This document shows, in pieces, positions 7,165-27,693 of a stretch of DNA of 27,693 nt. The DNA is taken from positions 1-27,693 of the forward strand of contig JADFLH010000018.1 in NCBI GenBank assembly GCA_022564515.1, in the 5' to 3' direction. Position numbers and translations under genes: made by a program. The notes under the pieces were generated by a model, which was not told the origin of the DNA, ran no database searches, and saw nothing but the letters and a program-made list of their open reading frames with translations. Origin of the DNA: Nitrososphaerota archaeon (GTDB lineage Archaea > Thermoproteota > Nitrososphaeria > Nitrososphaerales > Nitrosopumilaceae). Each line of letters starts with the position of its first letter. The first letter of the stretch is position 1.

Positions 7165-8418
7165 ATGGTTGAGATATGGATTGAGATAGCAGTATTAGCT
7201 ATTCTTATTGGCCTATCTGGTTTTTTCAGTGGATTAGAAGTTGCACTAGTTAGCCTAAGAAAGTCAAAGGTGCAACAACTGCTTAATCAAAATGCAAAGG
7301 GAGCAAAAGCACTTCACAAGCTAAAATCAAATCCTGGCTGGATGATGTCAAGTGTAAACCTAGGTAATAATTTAGTAAACGTAGCTGCGGCTGCAATTGC
7401 TACAAGTATCGCAATTCGAACTTTTGGAGATGATGGGTTAGGAATAGCAATCGGAATAGTGACATTTTTTATTCTAATCTTTGGAGAAATTACTCCAAAA
7501 ACTTATTGTAATGCCAATGCGGTAAAAATTGCACTTAGATTTAGTCCAGTATTACTTGGATTCAGTTATGCATTCTATCCTATTGTCAAACTTTTTGAAA
7601 TCATAACCCGTGCCATGGTAAAGCTTACTAAAAGCAGCTATCATCCACCTGCATTAACAGAGGAGGAAATTAAAGGAGTGATAGATCAAGGTTTGCTTGA
7701 TAAGGCCATAGAAAAAGAAGAAAGAGAACTTGTACATGGAGCATTACAATTTGATGATACTGTGATTCGCTCTGTAATGATTCCTAGGCCACAAATGTTT
7801 ACATTGAATTCAAAAATGCTTCTCTTTGAGGCTTTACCATTGATCATCCAAAGCGGACATTCCAGAGTACCAATTTATGGTTCTAGCAAAGACGAGATTG
7901 TTGGATTTGTTCATGTTAGAGACATTCTAAAAGAATTAGAGCAAGATAACAAAATGATTCGCCTTGAACAAATGGCAAGAAAGCCTATTTTTGCCTCCAA
8001 AGAAAAAATGATTAGTTCTCTGCTAAAGGAGATGAAAGGAAGAAAAATACACATAGCCATAGTTTTTGATGAATTTGGCGGTGTAGAAGGTTTAGTAACT
8101 CTTGAAGATTTGTTAGAGGAAATTGTAGGAGAGATTGAGGATGAAATAGACAAATCAAAACCAGCAGAATTTCAATCAATTGATCAAGATACTATTATTA
8201 CGAATGGGGACATTGAAATAGATACCATAAATGAGATTTTCAAAACTAATGTTCCTCAAGGTGATGATTATGCATCTCTTAATGGATTATTGCATGAAAG
8301 ACTACACGACATTCCAAAAGAAGGAGATAAAGTCGAAGTTGATTCATTACGAATTGTTGTAGAAAAGGTTTCAAAAAACAGACCTGAAAAGATCAGAATT
8401 AAAAGAATGAAAAGCTAA
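7165..8418 (+). CDS. CNNM/HlyC/CorC-family transporter (DUF21 TM domain + CBS pair + CorC_HlyC C-terminal domain)
   Basis: 417 aa. N-terminal TM helices with GLSGFFSGLEVALVS and FGEITPK. Central CBS-like region (VMIPR..., HSRVPIY, HIAIVFDEFGGVEGLVTLEDLLEEIVGEI). C-terminal transporter-associated domain. Confidence 0.9.
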   Translation: MVEIWIEIAVLAILIGLSGFFSGLEVALVSLRKSKVQQLLNQNAKGAKALHKLKSNPGWMMSSVNLGNNLVNVAAAAIATSIAIRTFGDDGLGIAIGIVTFFILIFGEITPKTYCNANAVKIALRFSPVLLGFSYAFYPIVKLFEIITRAMVKLTKSSYHPPALTEEEIKGVIDQGLLDKAIEKEERELVHGALQFDDTVIRSVMIPRPQMFTLNSKMLLFEALPLIIQSGHSRVPIYGSSKDEIVGFVHVRDILKELEQDNKMIRLEQMARKPIFASKEKMISSLLKEMKGRKIHIAIVFDEFGGVEGLVTLEDLLEEIVGEIEDEIDKSKPAEFQSIDQDTIITNGDIEIDTINEIFKTNVPQGDDYASLNGLLHERLHDIPKEGDKVEVDSLRIVVEKVSKNRPEKIRIKRMKS

Positions 8419-9467
8419 ACTTTTTTGGCAAATTGTTCTTGAAGTGCTTTTTTCTTTTCTTCCATGTGGAATAGCCCTTCAGCATGTTTGAATGCTTCTT
8501 CATAAGGTCTTTGGAATAACATTGCTTGCATCAGCATATGGTTTTCAGGAATAACGATTCCTGTTTGATCATCAGAGTACATCAATTTGACTGTGTCTTC
8601 TATGGATTCAATCATGTTTGCATGAATATGAACCATGTTTGTATCTGTAAAACTGAAATTCATTGTATTAGCAAAGTCTCTAACCTCTTTGGTGCCTTTT
8701 GCGGTCCACAAGGTGACCACCCCATATTCATTCTTGAAAATTTCTAAAATTTCAGAAGGTTTTGGTGCCTTATCTTTGAATCTAATGTCAACTATGTGTA
8801 AGTGCATCTGTCTTGTTGGAACTTTAATTGCACGCAAAAAAAGTGGGGTCTCTTTGCCAAGATAGCTTTTTACATCGTCAGCATGATGCGGATTTTCACT
8901 CCATTCAATGGTGTCTTTAAGATCTATGTTTGTTTGTTCAATGTCCGCCCATCTTCGAACTAGAATAACATCAAATCTTACTAATCTGTCACCATATTTT
9001 TCACGAAGAGGCTGAAGAATTCGTCCAATTCCAGTAACATTACAGCTTCCTTGCATAACGTGTTTTTTTCCAAACGCCTTAGTGTAATTCACTCTAGAAT
9101 TAAAAAGCAAGTCGGAAACTGCCTTTTCTCCATAGATTGTTTCACCTCCCTGATAAATTGCCATAAGCTTTTTTGGTTCGTAGAGATTTTTTTTGTTTAT
9201 ATAACCATTGCCGCTTGGAGCGGCATCAATAACTAAATCACAATCATTTAATGCAGATTCTATGCTGCCAACAATTTTAAAATTTCTAAAAGTGTCTAAT
9301 TTTTTTTCTGGAACAAAAACATCTAAACCACGAGAAATCGCAACATTCACTTTTTCATCCGGAGAATATTTTCCTACACCAATAACTTGAATCTCTGGAT
9401 CGTCTTTGATAAAAGAAGTGATTCTGCTACCAATAACACCATAACCATTTACAAAGACCTTCTTCAT
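8415..9467 (-). CDS. gap: Glyceraldehyde-3-phosphate dehydrogenase, archaeal (type II) form
   Basis: 350 aa. Rossmann start VNGYGVIGSR and catalytic-Cys motif GSCNVTG. Length and layout are typical of archaeal phosphorylating GAPDH. Confidence 0.9.
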   Translation of the reverse strand: MKKVFVNGYGVIGSRITSFIKDDPEIQVIGVGKYSPDEKVNVAISRGLDVFVPEKKLDTFRNFKIVGSIESALNDCDLVIDAAPSGNGYINKKNLYEPKKLMAIYQGGETIYGEKAVSDLLFNSRVNYTKAFGKKHVMQGSCNVTGIGRILQPLREKYGDRLVRFDVILVRRWADIEQTNIDLKDTIEWSENPHHADDVKSYLGKETPLFLRAIKVPTRQMHLHIVDIRFKDKAPKPSEILEIFKNEYGVVTLWTAKGTKEVRDFANTMNFSFTDTNMVHIHANMIESIEDTVKLMYSDDQTGIVIPENHMLMQAMLFQRPYEEAFKHAEGLFHMEEKKKALQEQFAKKV

Positions 9468-21654: not shown

Positions 21655-22497
21655 TTGAATGAATTGTTGTTGACCATATCAATCGCAATACCTAATTCAT
21701 CATTATCAGATGGAGTTACTCAATTGGAAAAGACTAGAAAAATTTCCGATATTGCTAGGGCGTGCGCAATCTTCAAAGTAGATACTATCTACTTGTATAA
21801 AGAAAGTGATAATAAAGATGATAATCAACTTTTGATTTCAGTTCTAAAATATCTAGAAACGCCCCCTTTCTTAAGAAAAAGACTTTTTCAGAAAATCAAT
21901 GAATTAAAGTATGCGGGGGTCTTACATCCTCTAAAAATTTCAAGTCATGTAAAACATGCAGATTCAAAAAAAATCAAAGTAGGCGAAATCAGAGATGGTG
22001 TGGTTATTAGTTCTAAAGGAAAAAAATTTGTTGATTTAGGAATAAACCAACTAATGCAGTATTTTGGTAAAGCAAATGTTGGAAAACGAATAACAGTGCA
22101 ATTTAGGAAAGGATATCCTGACTTTATCATAAAAGAAATTTCAAATGAACAGATTCCGGAATATTGGGGCTACAAAGTCAAAGAAAAAGGAAATTTATTT
22201 TCACTTATCTCATCTTGGTCAGGAAAAATCATTTTAACTTCAAAAAAAGGCAAATTGATCACAAAATCACTAATCAAAAATTATTTGAATCTAAATGAAC
22301 CAATTCTTCTTGTTTTTGGATCACCATCCAAGGGTATTCATGAAATTTTAGGTAGTAAAATTAAACAAACTCAAAATGCTAGATTTTTGAATTTTTTTCC
22401 TGTACAAGCAACTGAAACAATAAGACTTGAAGAAGCAGTTTTTGCTAGTCTCGCAATTTTAAACTTTGAACAATCCTCTACAATTAATATGAATTAA
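21655..22497 (+). CDS. DUF171-type SPOUT superfamily putative RNA methyltransferase
   Basis: 280 aa. N-terminal LTISIAIPNSSLSD...KISDIARACAIFKVDTIYLY and C-terminal LLVFGSPSKGIHEIL (knot-like region) match the DUF171 layout as recalled. TTG start. Confidence 0.7.
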   Translation: MNELLLTISIAIPNSSLSDGVTQLEKTRKISDIARACAIFKVDTIYLYKESDNKDDNQLLISVLKYLETPPFLRKRLFQKINELKYAGVLHPLKISSHVKHADSKKIKVGEIRDGVVISSKGKKFVDLGINQLMQYFGKANVGKRITVQFRKGYPDFIIKEISNEQIPEYWGYKVKEKGNLFSLISSWSGKIILTSKKGKLITKSLIKNYLNLNEPILLVFGSPSKGIHEILGSKIKQTQNARFLNFFPVQATETIRLEEAVFASLAILNFEQSSTINMN

Positions 22498-22505
22498 GAA
22501 TAGTT

Positions 22506-22616
22506 ATGGTGGAACCAAAAAATTTTTTAATTTTAGCTATTGTGATGGGCGTAATTGGAATCATTATTGGTAGTGTTAGTCTTTGGTTAACAACAACTAA
22601 ATTGTTACAACCATAA
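22506..22616 (+). CDS. Candidate single-TM mini-protein (36 aa)
   Basis: Hand-translated: MVEPKNFLILAIVMGVIGIIIGSVSLWLTTTKLLQP. Starts 9 nt after the stop of the DUF171 gene. Confidence 0.35.
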   Translation: MVEPKNFLILAIVMGVIGIIIGSVSLWLTTTKLLQP

Positions 22617-22788
22617 AGATTATTTTCATAAAAATTTCAAAAAATTATACAAAATTTTAGTAGGCATACAAAGTGGTATTTTTTAACCCTATTAGAACAC
22701 TGAAAAGCTAAATCTTCGTGATGAAAGTCTTAACGAATTCATTGACAGAGAAAAATGCATTCCCACGTGTAGTCGTGATTTACTCACA

Positions 22789-23373
22789 TTAACTAATTTT
22801 ATCTAAAACCATTCTCATAAATTTAAGACTGGGATCATCATCCCATAAATTATCTAAAATGGATTCAACATGGACGTAAACATTTCCCTTAACGCATCTT
22901 AATTCATAAACTTGTTTTGGATAAGAACCATTTGATGTTGATTTGTACGTTCCAAAACATGTTGCATTATAAGCACTGGATTTGGTTGTTTCAAAACTGC
23001 CGTCATCTATAAGATGTTGTGTTTGCCCAGTGTAGAAATTAAAACTGTTTAACGGATTATCAAACATGAAAACCCCAACTGAAATTGAAGTTATAAAGAA
23101 ATCCTCTGTCTTGACATAACGTTGAGTAGATCCTATTGTAAATCCTTCTGCATCCAGAGTATTCTCCAAGTGAGATGACTTTATTTCCAAAATTGTTCCA
23201 ACATCACTTCTTGTTGGGAGTAACTGCTCTGGGGGTTTTGTAACGATAATTTCTCTTGGCTGTTCGCTAACTTCGCTAGGAGATAGTTCATAAAAGATGT
23301 CTCCCAATATTATAATTCCTATTACAGCTATTCCAATAAATGCAATACCAGCAATAATTTTTTGCTTTCCCAA
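22789..23373 (-). CDS. Membrane-anchored extracytoplasmic hypothetical protein
   Basis: 194 aa. N-terminal anchor IIAGIAFIGIAVIGIIILG, then a beta-rich domain with two Cys. No recognised family. Confidence 0.55.
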   Translation of the reverse strand: MGKQKIIAGIAFIGIAVIGIIILGDIFYELSPSEVSEQPREIIVTKPPEQLLPTRSDVGTILEIKSSHLENTLDAEGFTIGSTQRYVKTEDFFITSISVGVFMFDNPLNSFNFYTGQTQHLIDDGSFETTKSSAYNATCFGTYKSTSNGSYPKQVYELRCVKGNVYVHVESILDNLWDDDPSLKFMRMVLDKIS

Positions 23374-23557
23374 TCAGAGTAACAATGTAAAAGTAATAAA
23401 TTAACATTTTTTATATGGATTTGTGAATTTTTTTTCAGAATTTTTGCTTTCTAAACGCAAATCAATTCAAGTGGCGATTTCAAGTCTGAAACGATAAGTG
23501 TTCTTATAATTTTCAGTTTACATCAAATGAAAAAATAAAGAAGAGCCGGTTTTATTT

Positions 23558-23842
23558 CTACAGTATTCTACTACTCGTTCCTCGATTTGTGACTATAATA
23601 CAGCCATTCGTTGAATAGATCTTAGGTCTTGATTTTGGATAATTTTCAACTTTTACGCAGGCTGTGCCTCTACATATCGTCACAGTCTCGTTTGCTGAAA
23701 CTCCTTTCATTTTTTCTTGTAGATACTCTCGATAAGGTTCCCCCGCCCAATTTGGGGAATGTACATCAATTCTTTGGACTGTAGTACCTCTTCCGCTTAC
23801 CAGACTTGCTCTCATAATCAATTCATAAAATGAATATGACAT
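23558..23842 (-). CDS. Hypothetical protein
   Basis: 94-aa ORF with no recognised motif. Confidence 0.45.
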   Translation of the reverse strand: MSYSFYELIMRASLVSGRGTTVQRIDVHSPNWAGEPYREYLQEKMKGVSANETVTICRGTACVKVENYPKSRPKIYSTNGCIIVTNRGTSSRIL

Positions 23843-24173
23843 AAAACCAGCTGTCTATTTTTTTTTGTGTACTATGATGTTTATGAAATATGAAAAACTT
23901 ATTTTTTCATAGTTAGACTCATAAATTTTTTAGTTAATAAAAAAAATTTTATTCATTTTTCATGAATTGAAGTGAATTTTTATAAAATTTATGGGTGTAT
24001 ATTAATTGACAATTTTTCCCTAGTTTTTTACAAACAATTCGTATCAAATGTTAAATCCGTTGTATATTCAAGAATTTTTCCTTGTATTTTATGTAACGGA
24101 TATTTTTCTTAATTTGATTGAAAAGCATCAAAAATCAAAATAATATAACCTTAGATTGCATAATTAAAATTTA

Positions 24174-24404
24174 ATGAGTAAGGGCGAAGAATTTCATTTT
24201 CCTCCAGAAATTGATGAAGAATATCAAAAATTTTGTTATGAATTATTCCTGAGAGATAAAAAGGGTGAAAAAATTGATTATGCAAAAGAATCAATGAATT
24301 TTTGGAACCAAAAAATAAAGGAAGCAGTTGATAGTGTAAAAACCTTAACTGATAATGTTGTAGATCAGTTAGAGCACGATAAACCTGGGAAAAAAGTATT
24401 CTAG
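24174..24404 (+). CDS. Hypothetical small acidic protein
   Basis: 76-aa ORF preceded by a 330-bp AT-rich spacer. It ends 27 nt before repeat copy 1. Confidence 0.45.
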   Translation: MSKGEEFHFPPEIDEEYQKFCYELFLRDKKGEKIDYAKESMNFWNQKIKEAVDSVKTLTDNVVDQLEHDKPGKKVF

Positions 24405-24431
24405 TGTTTACTAGGCGTGCAGATACTCTTC

Positions 24432-24747
24432 TTTAGTTTTATATTCATTGTCTGGGAATTTTAATTACATACAACCAAACTTAACTCGTTTTAAATAATT
24501 GATATTGTATCCCCCAGCAAATCATGTCTTACCTCTTTCAACCAGTAAAATTTTTGGGGGATACTCCGTATTTTCACAATAGAACATAAATCACTCTTGA
24601 TCCAGATGTATCTAAGATAAAGTGCTAATTAGTATAGACCGAAATAGCCCAGTTCGCAGAGGGATGGAATAAATGATGCCGCTCTTCTTACCCTTTTTTT
24701 GTTTTGATTAAATAACGATACTCTCTTTTAGGACTTTTTTTACATTT
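24432..24747. repeat. 316-bp direct repeat, copy 1 (identical to 25952-26267)
   Basis: Compared base by base with copy 2 at a constant offset of 1520 bp and found no mismatch. The flanks diverge immediately on both sides. No ORF longer than ~21 codons. Confidence 0.97.
24507..24564. other. GC-rich inverted repeat/hairpin inside repeat copy 1 (10-bp perfect stem GTATCCCCCA/TGGGGGATAC, 38-nt loop)
   Basis: 24507-24516 is the exact reverse complement of 24555-24564. This is G/C-rich in an AT-rich context. Confidence 0.8.
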
Positions 24748-25085
24748 CATAACAATTGTTTACAGTTTGCATCAAATGTAAATCAAGATTCTTTTTCTAG
24801 AGATGGGATGAGAATAAAGCCAGAATTGAGAGATGGGTAGTGCAAACATATAGGCTATGACTTTATTCTTCAAGGTAATCTGACGCGGCTTGGAATAAAA
24901 GTAGGCTGGAAAATTAGTTCAAAATTAGTTACCAAATTGGAAATTCAATTCATTAAATCTGTTATCAGTTCATATCAAACTAATCATGAAAATTCGTAAT
25001 TGATAAAGTAACTAAACAAAATTAGAGTAAAAGTTACAAAGTATCCAATTTAGGAACGCAAATAACAATTTAGTTATAGGTCATT

Positions 25086-25343
25086 ATGCAATGGGTTGAA
25101 GCACTCCTAAGAAAATCATGTGATAAAACATTAACGAAAGCAGAGGTTTTGCATAGTCTTTTCCACATGATAGAAGTAAACGAGAATACCTTAAACCACA
25201 TCCAAACGCATAAGAAAGACTTTGGACCTGAACTTGAAGAAATCACTCAAACGGAAATCCACGATTTAGACTTTCATCTAAAGTATTATCGTAGTCTTGT
25301 AAATTACATTAATTCAATGCCTGAAAACAAAATTGTTGAGTAA
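25086..25343 (+). CDS. Hypothetical helical protein (first gene of the repeat-bracketed cassette)
   Basis: 85-aa ORF, 49 nt upstream of and co-oriented with the NUMOD3-repeat gene. Confidence 0.45.
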   Translation: MQWVEALLRKSCDKTLTKAEVLHSLFHMIEVNENTLNHIQTHKKDFGPELEEITQTEIHDLDFHLKYYRSLVNYINSMPENKIVE

Positions 25344-25392
25344 ACTCCGTTTTCCTGAAAATTCTTAATTCTTAGTTTAATCCAGAAAATTC

Positions 25393-25893
25393 ATGAGTTC
25401 CAATGATGATGAAAATGCCACTCCCGAAAAATTAAAAGTACATCATGAAAAACCGATGAGGGCAAGACATCATTCAGAAGAAACTAGAAGAAAATTAAGT
25501 ATTGCACAAAAAGGAAAACGTCATTCAGAAGAAACTCTAAGAAAAATGTCCGAATCTCACAAGGGCCACACTCCATGGAACAAAGGAAGAAAGGGCGTCT
25601 ACTCAGAAGAAACCCTAAGAAAAATATCCGAATCTTTGAAAGCTAGAACTTTAACAAGAAAAATAAAGAAATTATCATTATCAGCTGGAAGAAAAACGTC
25701 GATATCTCACAAGGGCCACACTCCATGGAACAGAGGTAGGAAAGAAATAAGATCAAATGTTTTACACAAACAATCATTATCTCATTTAGGAAAAAACCCC
25801 ACTTTAGAAACTCTGAGAAAAATATCCGAATCTCTTGAAGAAATGAAGACATCCTTGAAAGAGTATGAGAAACAACTTAAATCGAAAAAGTAG
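25393..25893 (+). CDS. Protein made of tandem NUMOD3-like DNA-binding repeats, with no nuclease domain
   Basis: 166 aa. Repeated units are HSEETRRKLSIAQKGK, HSEETLRKMSESHKGHTPWNKGRKG, YSEETLRKISESLKAR, KTSISHKGHTPWNRGRK and TLETLRKISESLEE. They match the HSEETK-x-KIS-x-x-x-KG pattern of NUMOD3 modules of GIY-YIG/HNH homing endonucleases. A 29-bp perfect internal DNA repeat occurs at 25554-25582 and 25704-25732. Confidence 0.7.
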   Translation: MSSNDDENATPEKLKVHHEKPMRARHHSEETRRKLSIAQKGKRHSEETLRKMSESHKGHTPWNKGRKGVYSEETLRKISESLKARTLTRKIKKLSLSAGRKTSISHKGHTPWNRGRKEIRSNVLHKQSLSHLGKNPTLETLRKISESLEEMKTSLKEYEKQLKSKK

Positions 25894-25951
25894 TTTATTT
25901 TTCAATACAATAATCTGCAAGATTAAATATAAATCCACAGGGATGCGAACA

Positions 25952-26267
25952 TTTAGTTTTATATTCATTGTCTGGGAATTTTAATTACATACAACCAAAC
26001 TTAACTCGTTTTAAATAATTGATATTGTATCCCCCAGCAAATCATGTCTTACCTCTTTCAACCAGTAAAATTTTTGGGGGATACTCCGTATTTTCACAAT
26101 AGAACATAAATCACTCTTGATCCAGATGTATCTAAGATAAAGTGCTAATTAGTATAGACCGAAATAGCCCAGTTCGCAGAGGGATGGAATAAATGATGCC
26201 GCTCTTCTTACCCTTTTTTTGTTTTGATTAAATAACGATACTCTCTTTTAGGACTTTTTTTACATTT
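25952..26267. repeat. 316-bp direct repeat, copy 2 (identical to 24432-24747)
   Basis: See copy 1. It begins 58 nt after the stop of the NUMOD3-repeat gene. Confidence 0.97.
26027..26084. other. GC-rich hairpin inside repeat copy 2 (same as 24507-24564)
   Basis: Same sequence as the copy-1 hairpin, shifted by 1520 bp. Confidence 0.8.
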
Positions 26268-26549
26268 GACATCTTAAATATTGGAATGATATTCATTTTT
26301 TGCGTTGGAGTATTTGGAACAGAATTATAATTTTAAAAAATTTATAATGTTTTTAGCTTTAATTCCAACCTTCACATTATCTTTAACTGTTGATCATTTT
26401 GAGGACTCTCACGCTGAAGATTATTCCCTAGGAATATTTCAGTTAAAGCTAAACTACTACGAAGTCAGTCGCTGGTAGGAGATGTATTTTGGATCATTAT
26501 TGAAGAGGACAGAGGCACCATTGTAGTATCTTCCCAAAAAGGAATAATT

Positions 26550-26795
26550 GTGATTAGATTTGAATTTCAAGATCATGAGAAATGTTATGATAAACAAAAT
26601 ACTTTCTGTCTTAAAGCAGCTCTTACTGAGACTAAAAATACTTACTTTACTAAAGTTGGCGATGAGGCAACTATAATTCTTGAATATCCTAACAAGTTGA
26701 CTTTTTCAATTTTGAGTGGGGATCTAGTAACTAATACATTTGAACTTGAAATAGAAAAATTAAGAAAAATTAATATTCCAACAGATCAGAGCTGA
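26550..26795 (+). CDS. Hypothetical protein, possibly the 3' part of a frameshifted gene starting at 26347
   Basis: 81-aa ORF from GTG. The same frame stays open and protein-like upstream to 26418 without a start codon. A 43-codon ORF with a hydrophobic N-terminus (26347-26478) overlaps it in another frame. Confidence 0.35.
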   Translation: MIRFEFQDHEKCYDKQNTFCLKAALTETKNTYFTKVGDEATIILEYPNKLTFSILSGDLVTNTFELEIEKLRKINIPTDQS

Positions 26796-26826
26796 TTTTA
26801 CCTTGAATGGACATGGAAATACAATA

Positions 26827-27693
26827 ATGAAAATCAGTCTATTTCTTGCATTAATTCCAATAATTCTATCAATTGGGATTATACCTGTTATACCATTTAC
26901 CAATGCTGAAGTTGAATTACAATGCATGAGTGGAGAGGTTACTGTAGTACGTACTACTAATCCCGACCCTATCTGTATTAACGAAATCACTGCTAATAGA
27001 TGGGTACAATTAGGAATTGCAGAAATTATTGGTGAACCCATGGAAGAAGAGATGATGGAAGAAACCATGGTAGAAGAGAAGATGGAAGTAACGGTAGAAG
27101 AAAAAATCGCAGTGGGAGTAGAAGTAATGAAAGACGCAATGGCAATGAAACTTCATGAATGGATTACAGCAACTGGAACAATAGACTCGATGCAAGACCA
27201 AGGAATGGGACATGAATCTCATCAGCTTGCAATCATCTTACCGCCAACGGATAAGATCTACAAAGGAATTCTATCCTATTCTGCATCAGAACCAATTCAA
27301 CTGATAGCACTACACGGTCCACTAGCCGAAGGTGAGGACAAAGGACAGCCAATATGGGCACCAGATGACAAAACAAAGTTTGCTTTGACATTTGTTGATA
27401 AGGAAACCTCAACGGGTTCTTGGCTTTTCACAGGTAATGCTCTTGCAGTACATACCAAGAATACAGAACAATTTACAGTAAGCTACTCTGTTAGCTACTT
27501 AGAAAAAGAAATGTCTGATACCGTTTCCACTGCAACAATGGAATCTGTACAAGACCCAGGAATAGGACATGAAGCACACTCTATAGTAATCATTCTTCCA
27601 CCAAGTGAAATGACATACAGTGGGATGTTGACCTATTCTGCATCAGAACCAATTCAACTGATAGCACTACACGGTCCACTAGCCGAAGGTGAG
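26827..27693 (+). CDS. Secreted repeat protein (3'-truncated by the window end) with a Met/Glu-rich linker and tandem ~119-aa GHExH-containing domains
   Basis: Open frame of 289 codons running off the window, so it is absent from the closed-ORF track. Signal peptide MKISLFLALIPIILSIGIIPVIPFTNA. Linker EPMEEEMMEETMVEEKMEV...MKDAMAMKLHEW. Two repeats containing QDQGMGHESHQLAIILPP / QDPGIGHEAHSIVIILPP and the identical SYSASEPIQLIALHGPLAEGE. Confidence 0.7.
   Translation, partial: MKISLFLALIPIILSIGIIPVIPFTNAEVELQCMSGEVTVVRTTNPDPICINEITANRWVQLGIAEIIGEPMEEEMMEETMVEEKMEVTVEEKIAVGVEVMKDAMAMKLHEWITATGTIDSMQDQGMGHESHQLAIILPPTDKIYKGILSYSASEPIQLIALHGPLAEGEDKGQPIWAPDDKTKFALTFVDKETSTGSWLFTGNALAVHTKNTEQFTVSYSVSYLEKEMSDTVSTATMESVQDPGIGHEAHSIVIILPPSEMTYSGMLTYSASEPIQLIALHGPLAEGE

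Follow-up and report, generated by a model that had tools for sequence, protein, structure and literature searches.

A perfect non-coding direct repeat around a two-gene cassette in a Nitrosopumilaceae island: a probable old duplication recently evened out by gene conversion

Concerted evolution by intrachromosomal gene conversion is known in prokaryotes, for instance at the tufA/tufB genes and the rRNA operons, and offers a point of comparison for the locus described here, in which two 316-bp direct repeats (R1 and R2, jointly R) flank a two-gene cassette. The locus lies in contig JADFLH010000018.1 of the Nitrososphaerota archaeon assembly GCA_022564515.1, of which a stretch of 27,693 nt (hereafter the window) was analysed. 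As in concerted evolution, the R copies of the window are identical within the genome and 7-13% different between lineages, their identity appears restricted to pre-existing homology, and the R1 and R2 types appear position-specific in sister lineages. Unlike tufA/tufB and the rRNA operons, R is short, non-coding and intergenic, has its partner 1.2 kb away and is not a highly expressed gene; and unlike classic concerted evolution, homogenisation is seen in one lineage only, by a mechanism that we infer. To our knowledge there is little work on recombination in Nitrosopumilaceae and these organisms are not yet genetically manipulable; the locus would provide a clean natural case in which a short non-coding repeat of this family evolves in concert.

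Other described systems resemble the locus in part. Direct repeats that flank a cassette with sharp boundaries recall Campbell-type integration and loop-out, but unlike such integration the locus has yielded no empty site, free or viral copy, or replication or recombination gene in the contigs and scans given below, and its junctions are common to diverged lineages with decayed repeats. The second cassette gene is similar to free-standing GIY-YIG/HNH homing endonuclease genes (phage seg/mob-type, I-TevI-like) in its NUMOD3 repeats (~35-74% identity) and its intergenic position in a variable region; unlike them it is without a nuclease domain or remnant, is not sporadic and is apparently under purifying selection. 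Flexible genomic islands occur in ammonia-oxidising archaeal populations (bioRxiv 10.1101/2024.04.23.590705). Like those, the island that contains the present structure is lineage-specific, lies between core genes, has many structural versions among close relatives and encodes several predicted secreted or membrane-anchored proteins (N-termini judged by eye). Unlike them it is small (~7 kb), adjoins the rpl3 ribosomal-protein operon and is, to judge from sequence similarity, partly built from paralogues of core small genes; it is not among the islands described in that study. The R-cassette-R structure is ordinary island dynamics, and the locus documents a small flexible island adjoining a ribosomal-protein operon.

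Table 1. Features of the repeat-flanked cassette and its surroundings (window coordinates)
Feature	Position	Strand	Basis or remark
Lineage-specific island, ~7.2 kb, containing the whole structure	22498..27693, on past the window end to rpl3	.	L005
p76, left-flank gene	24174..24404	+	paralogue of a 61-aa gene usually between CLC channel and TFB genes
R1, left copy of 316-bp direct repeat	24432..24747	.	exact identity to 25952-26267
TATA-like box TTTTAAATAA	24489..24498 (R1), 26009-26018 (R2)	+	26-35 nt upstream of ATG at 24524
Predicted hairpin, 10-bp GC-rich stem GTATCCCCCA/TGGGGGATAC, 38-nt loop	24507..24564 (R1), 26027-26084 (R2)	+	DNA fold
Candidate 21-codon micro-ORF (MSYLFQPVKFLGDTPYFHNRT) or small-transcript 5' end	24524..24589 (R1), 26044-26109 (R2)	+	ORF list
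Conserved R tail, two T7 runs (terminator-like) and motif GATACTCTCTTTTAG	24691..24742 (R1), 26211-26262 (R2)	+	
Cassette between repeats, 1204 bp	24748..25951	+	
169-bp cassette segment absent from L052-, L050-, L058-, L023- and L054-type lineages	24777..24945	.	
p85 gene plus 76 bp of its own upstream DNA; paralogous to an 87-96-aa gene conserved in Nitrosopumilaceae	25010..25343	+	
NUMOD3-repeat protein without nuclease, 166 aa	25393..25893	+	Pfam
R2, right copy of 316-bp direct repeat	25952..26267	.	exact identity to R1
Right-flank gene	26347..26795	+	

The repeat pair and its layout in sister lineages

R1 and R2 are identical at 316 of 316 positions, with an offset of 1520 bp, and outside each boundary the 100-bp flanks are only 25-26% identical, which is the random level. 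The GC content of R is 32.0% versus 32.8% for the whole window. The exact, non-coding 316-bp repeats with abrupt edges that the original prediction had reported from the sequence alone were borne out by sequence comparison and by public assemblies. Its further observations also held: a hairpin and oligo-T tracts are present inside R (a 10-bp stem and two T7 runs), the longest ATG-initiated ORF within R has 21 codons (28 if alternative starts are allowed), in agreement with its ceiling of about 21, and two co-oriented ORFs, one of them NUMOD3, lie between the repeats. A tandem duplication was rejected: with the sequence flanking R at random level, the cassette cannot be a diverged duplicate of the left or the right flank; descent of R from the usual loci of the p76 and p85 paralogues was likewise rejected, no R homology being found in those loci.

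The island is bounded by a methyltransferase gene and by rpl3. These two genes are neighbours in 21 other Nitrosopumilaceae genomes, rpl3 following the methyltransferase gene within ~220 bp, and the island genes are absent there. Other genera were therefore rejected as a syntenic empty site: the whole island is missing there, so that they do not inform on the state before the cassette. The right-flank gene is intact in L053 (~150 aa, with a signal-peptide-like N-terminus) and frameshifted in all window-type contigs.

Sister lineages with 86-94% identity share the order left flank-R1-cassette-R2 with the window. All sampled island-bearing relatives have left flank-R1-cassette, with R2 or what is left of it in those that extend further. 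In three assemblies (L052, L050 and L058) the left flank is followed by a full R1, ~87% identical to the R of the window, and then by the cassette, after which come R2 positions 1-131/143 and a deletion that reaches into the M10 peptidase region. A short R1 (positions 1-143 + 286-316) lies between left flank and cassette in L053 and L056, in which the R tail alone (290-316) separates cassette and right flank; in L011 the cassette is followed by a short R2 (1-132 + 266-316) and the right flank. The L053-type deletion has GATACTC microhomology at both ends. A complete R2 was found in none of the sampled sister lineages, and the cassette was found in every sister-lineage contig extending that far, at 89-92% identity. 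As these junctions are common to lineages 6-14% diverged, the duplication is older than those splits; and since R1 and R2 differ from each other in the sister lineages, the contigs of the latter are unambiguous.

The divergence of the two copies in L052 (91.5% identity over positions 1-131) is comparable to that between lineages (90-93%), and sister-lineage R copies match the R of the window at 87-93% identity. In a neighbour-joining tree built from R positions 1-131, the sister R1 copies come together in one clade (63-65% bootstrap) and the sister R2 copies lie on the other side, together with the R of the window, which gives modest support to a grouping of R copies by position. The diagnostic sites of the window R are a mixture of R1-like and R2-like. 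Conservation between lineages amounts to 90-92% at R positions 1-135 and ~85% at 136-285, like nearby intergenic DNA; given that R diverges like its intergenic neighbourhood, selection alone cannot hold 316 of 316 bases identical.

The two cassette genes

The 85-aa ORF had originally been regarded as an orphan, which proved wrong. The p85 protein (CDS 25086-25343) belongs to a conserved small-protein family with 987 matches in a protein search, among which those listed are 79-99% identical and those named are all from Nitrosopumilaceae. DNA homology of the p85 gene to its usual locus is confined to 25010-25338, at ~79%. At the usual locus, the paralogue adjoins a stand-alone 105-aa GIY-YIG gene. 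The AlphaFold2 model of p85 is a helical hairpin (pLDDT 91), and a search of this model against the PDB gave no significant match (best E = 0.26). An assignment of function from structure was accordingly rejected, the model being confident and a significant PDB match lacking.

The 166-aa ORF matches NUMOD3 (PF07460) with E = 2.8e-15 in two stretches, and Pfam finds no other domain in it. Its close homologues number only three; other NUMOD3 relatives are 110-290 aa long, ~35-74% identical over the repeats, and many of them have a GIY-YIG or HNH domain. Searches by tblastn with full-length GIY-YIG/HNH-NUMOD3 relatives recovered no nuclease remnant in the window or L005, and a split or decayed nuclease was thereby rejected. 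Of the full-length relatives examined, the nearest has neighbouring genes (HTH_3, Peptidase_S24 and HNH) that give it a prophage-like setting; this neighbourhood is uninformative on archaea and was rejected as a pointer to the source of the gene. The NUMOD3 gene occurs in all sampled island-bearing lineages.

Between lineages dN/dS is 0.09-0.22 for p85 and 0.22-0.43 for the NUMOD3 gene, and both genes are, to judge from these ratios, under purifying selection. Because dN/dS is low for both, the cargo is not recent. The NUMOD3 gene would document a homing-endonuclease DNA-binding module that is kept under selection without a nuclease.

Explanations for the perfect identity

We consider it probable that R-cassette-R is an old local duplication that was recently evened out by gene conversion in the lineage of the window. 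A 316-bp intergenic block would have been duplicated long ago in a non-tandem fashion and then fixed, inside a structurally unstable ~7-kb lineage-specific island of an uncultivated Nitrosopumilaceae clade. The cassette would pair a nuclease-less NUMOD3 DNA-binding protein of the homing-endonuclease kind with a paralogue, captured along with its own promoter region, of a small protein conserved in Nitrosopumilaceae, and selection would keep both genes. In the sister lineages the R copies would have drifted apart and been partly deleted, and in the window lineage intrachromosomal homologous recombination would recently have overwritten one R with the other, R2-type sequence probably replacing R1. 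It is from the pattern of the sequences that we infer gene conversion as the homogenising mechanism. The sharp edges of R would be the edges of the old duplication, because conversion cannot pass existing homology. By comparison with relatives, the junctions date as old, whereas the identity dates as recent. The original prediction had offered recent duplication, insertion or ongoing conversion; conversion is the part that we retain, and a recent insertion or duplication does not stand, the junctions being old. Conversion alone does not explain why R is without polymorphism in the window-type contigs, in which segregating sites reach ~1.2% in the right flank and up to ~2.4% in the cassette.

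A function of R might help to explain this absence of variation. R could be a small functional gene present in two copies, whether as a leaderless micro-ORF of 21 codons or as a small RNA of ~190 nt carrying a 5' hairpin, a reading that would supplement the old duplication, with conversion still acting, and that we regard as unlikely. The TATA-like box precedes a conserved ATG at the spacing of accepted genes in the window; its function is uncertain, and the variation of its central base between lineages speaks against the small gene. The hairpin, with arms at R positions 76-85 and 124-133 (24507-24516/24555-24564), has a predicted DNA fold of -8.6 kcal/mol (z = -2.2), and its stem shows a single compensatory change in L018 (C-G to A-T). 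Codons 1-13 of the micro-ORF contain several synonymous changes, for example CTC to TTA, about equal in number to the non-synonymous ones (counted by hand in the lineage alignment), a substitution pattern that is suggestive only as a sign of coding. The T7 runs, at 24694-24700 and 24735-24741 in R1, lie near the R end, and L052-type lineages have a stronger predicted stem right before the first of them (dG -7.8 kcal/mol, z = -2.3). Against these signals, R had no match in Rfam at gathering or permissive thresholds, a tRNA scan of R gave nothing, the whole-R fold on either strand was no better than shuffles (z = +0.8 and +0.9) and in the alignment fold the covariation term was close to zero for either strand; a known RNA or tRNA was rejected as the identity of R, and a global RNA structure of R finds no support in these folds. 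Furthermore, the middle 140 nt are only 76-88% conserved and have been deleted independently in two lineages, truncating or altering the ORF, and the overall conservation is that of neighbouring intergenic DNA. Our best guess is that R is intergenic DNA carrying signals that resemble a promoter and a terminator, possibly yielding a small transcript. A 15-nt motif, GATACTCTYYTTTAG, occurs both at the junction of left flank and R1 and within the R tail.

The structure had originally been read as a 1520-bp module that is excisable, or that was recently integrated or mobilised: a circle of the cassette and one R that entered by homologous recombination at a resident R and can loop out again. We now hold this to be distinctly unlikely. 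Its geometry is exact, with four sharp junctions and perfect identity, and any 316-bp direct repeat could in principle recombine and delete the DNA between the copies. The short-read graph of the window-type samples, taken by itself, is also compatible with a left flank-R-right flank arrangement plus a free cassette-R circle, and the integrated form in the window-type population rests on the window, one independent scaffold (L015) and the analogy with sister lineages. Four Logan contigs begin exactly at the R2 start (25952) yet continue through the R2 end into the right flank, an asymmetry that is counted in favour of this reading. However, relatives share the layout with R copies that are diverged and differently truncated by independent deletions, so that the junctions predate the lineage splits, and the cargo genes appear to be under purifying selection between lineages. 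A layout common to the relatives is an outcome that the original prediction had itself named as refuting the module. None of ~45 related contigs joins left flank-R-right flank as an empty site with a single repeat would, the short window-type contigs breaking within R. When metagenomes were scanned with an invariant R core of 25 nt, the 7 loci recovered were all at the present locus, and two viral scans for R had no matches; in these exact-pattern searches R occurs only at the present locus, and a dispersed or viral repeat was rejected. Pfam scans of the cassette, the flank and other window ORFs, and the gene table of L057, contained no integrase, transposase or recombinase, and no replication gene was found in the 1520-bp unit. 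The R and cassette ends have no terminal inverted repeat, and no target-site duplication was seen on reading the junctions. The original prediction had itself remarked on the lack of an integrase, transposase or terminal inverted repeat, and in this it was right. Perfect repeats that enclose a small group of genes are not in themselves evidence of recent mobility; current views are unchanged by this case, whose main use is for annotation and as a warning where scans single out repeats.

That breakage maintains the identity seems highly improbable. Here the R hairpin would be fragile or a target of cleavage, and the NUMOD3 protein might recognise it together with a separately encoded GIY-YIG nuclease, and repair from the other copy would amount to a homing-like self-conversion. 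Three independent deletion or truncation breakpoints do cluster within ~10 nt 3' of the hairpin, the NUMOD3 gene appears to be kept by purifying selection though it has no nuclease domain, and a candidate nuclease exists in the GIY-YIG gene beside the usual-locus p85 paralogue. This support from sequence is circumstantial, however; sister lineages with the NUMOD3 gene and the hairpin still have non-identical R copies, hairpins are general hotspots of replication slippage, and slippage is compatible with the GATACTC that borders the L053-type deletion on either side. Very little credence can be given to an extended version, in which R would combine a promoter, a hairpin transcript or micro-ORF and a terminator, with the hairpin as a programmed break or recombination site for predicted binding by a domesticated NUMOD3 protein, perhaps together with the stand-alone GIY-YIG nuclease; if true, the cassette would keep its own flanking repeats identical and could loop out, as a self-conversion or phase-variation device that an ammonia-oxidising archaeon derived from a homing endonuclease.

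Assembly evidence for the exact repeat

In the window-type population, for which ERZ27251160, ERZ27267525 and ERZ23498856 are examples of samples, R1 and R2 are exact copies of each other. Three samples yielded MEGAHIT k141 contigs that break off precisely 141 nt into R, whichever of the four sides they come from, and window-type contigs coming from the left flank end 141, 123 or 55 nt into R1. R2 is covered in full at 100% identity in L006, L015, L016/L051, L009, L010, L012 and L014, and L015 independently has left flank-R-cassette-R-right flank on one scaffold, with both R copies 100% identical to those of the window. The contig breakpoints verify the outer 141 nt at each R end, and the middle 34 nt of R1 are covered by the window and L015 only. 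It is extremely improbable that the second R or its perfect identity is an artefact of repeat collapse or mis-threading in metagenome assembly: the window is probably metagenome-derived, assemblers pop bubbles in repeats and may thereby erase small differences, and the R1 middle has the narrow coverage just given, but the breaks fall exactly k-1 or k nt into R on four sides in several assemblers and samples, so that k-mers must be shared at both ends of both copies, the full structure recurs in L015, and the unambiguous sister-lineage contigs show the same gene order.

L023 was rejected as a second NUMOD3-R unit: at both contig ends it is joined in inverted orientation to the same region, one of the joins forming a perfect palindrome of 103 nt, and it was read as a chimeric assembly. 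L018, with flanks 99% identical to the window, has an R1 that is only 87% identical; its divergent tract (24414-24685) reaches 18 nt outside R and therefore has the look of DNA imported from a different lineage rather than of an allele that simply escaped conversion.

Repeat pair and its recovery in independent assemblies

The exact direct repeat with abrupt edges that had been predicted from the sequence was confirmed: its two copies (R1 on the left and R2 on the right, collectively R; Table) are identical over all 316 bp, and in the 100 bp outside each boundary the identity falls to 25-26%, i.e. the random level. In GC content R (32.0%), the two-gene cassette enclosed by it (32.6%) and the window (32.8%) are about equal. 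The absence of coding capacity was borne out for ATG starts, the longest such ORF being 21 codons (28 codons if alternative starts are allowed). A tRNA scan of R found no tRNA, and no Rfam match was recovered even on allowing E-values up to 10. Both the hairpin and the oligo-T tracts of the original prediction are present, the latter as two T7 runs; the fold of R as a whole is no better than that of shuffled sequence on both strands (z = +0.9 and +0.8).

Public contigs of the same organism (>=99% identity, termed window-type) were gathered by exact-protein look-ups. MEGAHIT (k = 141) contigs from three samples stop exactly 141 nt inside R from all four sides, namely the left flank, both ends of the cassette and the right flank, while the first base of Logan contigs is exactly 25952 and those from SPAdes and JGI terminate 55 or 123 nt inside R1. 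Such breakpoints arise only if the two R copies share k-mers at each of their ends. Moreover, an independent scaffold of 2575 bp (L015) runs from the left flank through R1, the cassette and R2 into the right flank, with both copies identical to R of the window. Hence, the repeat pair is not an assembly artefact. The short-read assembly graph also fits a left flank-R-right flank chromosome accompanied by a free circle of cassette and R; that the unit is integrated in the window lineage rests on the window, L015 and the sister lineages (86-94% identical to the window), whose contigs are unambiguous. Four Logan contigs (L009, L010, L012 and L014) start at the first base of R2, yet continue past its end into the right flank, which a simple two-copy repeat graph at k = 31 does not predict; this asymmetry may reflect tip-clipping near a 169-bp indel, or another allele.

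Features of the repeat locus and its structural types in related contigs
Feature	Position or contigs	Description
R1	24432-24747	316 bp, exact match to R2
R2	25952-26267	offset 1520 bp from R1, exact match to R1
Cassette	between R1 and R2	1204 bp
p85	25086-25343	85-aa cassette ORF
NUMOD3 gene	25393-25893	166-aa cassette ORF
p76	24174-24404	left-flank gene
Hairpin in R	R positions 76-85/124-133	10-bp stem GTATCCCCCA/TGGGGGATAC; DNA dG -8.6 kcal/mol, z = -2.2
Breakpoint cluster	R positions 131-143 = 24562-24574 and 26082-26094	sister lineages
TATA-like box	24489-24498	TTTTAAATAA; 26-35 nt upstream of conserved ATG (24524)
Island	22498-27693 and beyond window end	continues as L005 1-3632
Type (a)	L052, L050, L058 (three assemblies); partly L054, L023, L059	left flank-R1 (full length, ~87% identical to window R)-cassette without 24777-24945-R2 positions 1-131/143, then deletion straight into M10 peptidase region
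Type (b)	L053, L056	left flank-short R1 (1-143 joined to 286-316)-complete cassette-last 27 nt of R only-right flank
Type (c)	L011	cassette-short R2 (1-132 joined to 266-316)-right flank
Type (d)	L018	flanks and cassette 99% identical to window; R1 only 87%

Age of the duplication and origin of the repeat identity

A metagenome scan with a 25-nt core of R (TAATTACATACAACCNAACTTAACTC), which is invariant across all variants seen, recovered seven loci, 7/7 of them at this same locus. Together with the look-ups it defined four structural types in lineages 86-94% identical to the window (Table). The original prediction had seen in the arrangement a recently mobilised or excisable module, such that relatives might show an empty site with one R, and R might flank genes elsewhere. 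Its statement that integrases and transposases are absent holds within the window; the mobile module itself is unsupported. None of the contigs compared passes from the left flank through a single R into the right flank, no R turned up outside this locus or in viral contigs, and what is observed in relatives is the same arrangement, diverging, an outcome that the prediction had itself linked to an old structure. Since lineages 6-14% apart have in common the junctions of R with both flanks and with the cassette, and the copies there are already divergent and decayed, both duplication and cassette are old and fixed. R1 and R2 of the L052 genome share 91.5% identity across their first 131 nt, and this within-genome distance equals that between lineages (90-93% identity). 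The divergence rate of R is about that of nearby intergenic DNA, with 90-92% identity in the first 135 nt and ~85% in the middle.

For R1 and R2 to be perfectly identical in the window lineage, they must have been homogenised recently. The simplest explanation is intrachromosomal gene conversion between the copies, 1.2 kb apart, which would have homogenised R in this lineage and would account for an identity that ends exactly at the old homology boundaries. In a neighbor-joining tree of the first 131 nt of R the R1 copies of the sister lineages form a clade (65% bootstrap), with their R2 copies placed opposite, alongside R of the window and R1 of L018. This hints that R2-type sequence might have overwritten R1, with the diagnostic sites being mixed and the direction uncertain. 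On balance, we favor as the best explanation an old fixed duplication, located in a small flexible island, the R copies having recently been made uniform by gene conversion; R-cassette-R would then be a further example of a process already known.

Candidates for the origin of the duplication itself are a long-ago Campbell-type event and a template switch at the motif GATACTCTYYTTTAG, which recurs at the left flank/R1 junction (24422) and in the tails of R (24717 and 26237). The degenerate form GAT[AG]C.....TTTAG occurs at 24422, 24717, 25942 and 26237, i.e. at both left R junctions and both R tails. The copy at the left flank/R1 junction, GATACTCTTCTTTAG, matches the tail copy at 13/15 positions, 10 of which lie outside R. 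The motif may have served as microhomology in the original duplication.

Variation within R and its potential function

Three independent breakpoints, namely the L052-type truncation and the L053-type and L011-type deletions, lie within ~10 nt 3' of the hairpin. The L053-type deletion is bounded by two GATACTC repeats (R positions 129-135 and 286-292), which fits slippage between them. Among about eight window-type sequences R has no segregating sites, as against ~1.2% in the 650 bp of right flank that follow and ~2.4% in the last 500 bp of the cassette (manual count); by a Poisson estimate, P(0) is about 0.02 to 0.0005. This lack of variation could reflect constraint, recent spread of this allele, or bubble-popping by assemblers. 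The divergent tract of L018 (JGI 3300022690) corresponds to window positions 24414-24685 (~270 nt, ~85% identity); it begins 18 nt outside R1 and resembles no other sampled R type, in flanks 99% identical to the window. It is probably an import from an unsampled lineage by inter-lineage recombination.

It is also conceivable, if rather unlikely, that R is a small functional unit, a proposal compatible with homogenisation of an old duplication. A TATA-like box precedes a conserved ATG at the same spacing as at real genes in the window, but its central base is variable. In the first 13 codons of the 21-codon ORF starting from this ATG, synonymous changes among the variants are about as frequent as non-synonymous ones (manual alignment count) and include a double synonymous CTC to TTA change. 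T7 runs lie downstream, the first preceded by a stable stem in L052-type lineages, and the hairpin of L018 shows one compensatory C-G to A-T change, although an overall covariation signal is absent. Also arguing against a function, the middle 140 nt of R are poorly conserved (76-88%) and have been independently deleted in two lineages. If not functional in this way, R is an intergenic stretch whose signals resemble those of terminators and promoters.

Cassette genes and the surrounding island

The 85-aa product of the first cassette gene (p85), originally taken for an orphan, has 987 database matches; the 120 listed are 79-99% identical, and those among them that carry a name are all from Nitrosopumilaceae. 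A 29-sequence alignment of the family has 46 invariant positions. For the cassette p85, dN/dS between lineages is 0.09-0.22, and AlphaFold2 confidently predicts a helical hairpin (pLDDT 91), to which no PDB entry matches significantly. The usual locus of the family, conserved across other genomes (the complete Nitrosopumilus sp. S4 genome among them), comprises genes for eRF1, HIT, dihydroxy-acid dehydratase, a helicase and a 105-aa stand-alone GIY-YIG protein, followed by the p85 homologue. DNA homology of this locus to the window (~79%) is confined to 25010-25338, i.e. the p85 coding sequence and 76 bp upstream, and no other genes of that neighborhood are present in the window, which identifies the cassette p85 as a captured paralogue carrying its own promoter region. 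The family gene, which encodes 87-96 aa, lies 275-370 bp downstream of the GIY-YIG gene in 5/5 contigs (L024-L028, four of which encode the same protein), and p85 of the window instead adjoins the NUMOD3 (endonuclease DNA-binding) gene; these associations could be a coincidence or a functional link.

The predicted NUMOD3-repeat protein was confirmed in the 166-aa ORF (Pfam E = 2.8e-15). Its only close homologues are three fragments from the same clade; other matches are NUMOD3 proteins of 110-290 aa (~35-74% identity over the repeats), many of which carry a GIY-YIG or HNH nuclease domain. Such a domain or its remnant is absent from the window and from the downstream contig L005. With a dN/dS of 0.22-0.43 the gene is not decaying, and the protein looks like a homing-endonuclease DNA-binding module kept alone. 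The JGI contig L023, considered as a second NUMOD3-R unit, was rejected: both its ends (1-103 and 2282-2801) are inverted joins to the NUMOD3 region, one an exact 103-nt palindrome, and are read as chimeric assembly. Within the non-coding left part of the cassette, 169 bp (24777-24945) are present in window- and L053-type lineages and missing in L052-type ones; the Logan contig L022 breaks there. Elsewhere in the window, NUMOD3 repeats from several endonuclease proteins give a weak recurrent tblastn match (best E ~0.06) to 8444-8527 (- strand), the C-terminus of a 350-aa ORF (8415-9467) that has no Pfam match.

In 21 Nitrosopumilaceae genomes an RNA methyltransferase gene (homologue of 21655-22497) is followed by rpl3 within ~220 bp, with none of the window-lineage genes in between; in the window lineage ~7.2 kb separates the two. 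Across lineages with 86-94% identity to the window, this island occurs in four or more structural versions. It encodes an M10 peptidase and several predicted secreted or membrane-anchored proteins (N-termini assessed by eye), and other versions also carry a response-regulator receiver and further genes. Ammonia-oxidising archaeal populations are known to harbor flexible islands of a broadly similar kind (bioRxiv 10.1101/2024.04.23.590705). The family of p76 is small (17 clusters), and its usual member, of 61 aa, is encoded between CLC channel and TFB genes; homology of p76 to the usual-locus members (L060-L067) is confined to 24173-24342 (~85% identity). Like p85, p76 is a captured paralogue of a core small gene, and thus the island is partly built from copies of such genes.

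An inverted paralogue of p76 and its upstream region (24034-24342) is found at L005 2996-3336 (85% identity), ~3 kb past R2 and beyond the window end; in window-type genomes this places it close to where the island ends on the right, and the L052- and L053-type versions lack it. The right-flank gene (26347-26795) is a single intact ~150-aa ORF with a signal-peptide-like start in L053, and has a frameshift near 26425-26430 in the window and every window-type contig examined, with an extra 4-nt indel at 26461-26465 in L007 and L013. Further right, 27172-27336 and 27529-27693 form a 165-nt internal direct repeat (79% identity) inside a predicted secreted-protein gene, which is a domain duplication, an intact 363-aa version being seen in L053.
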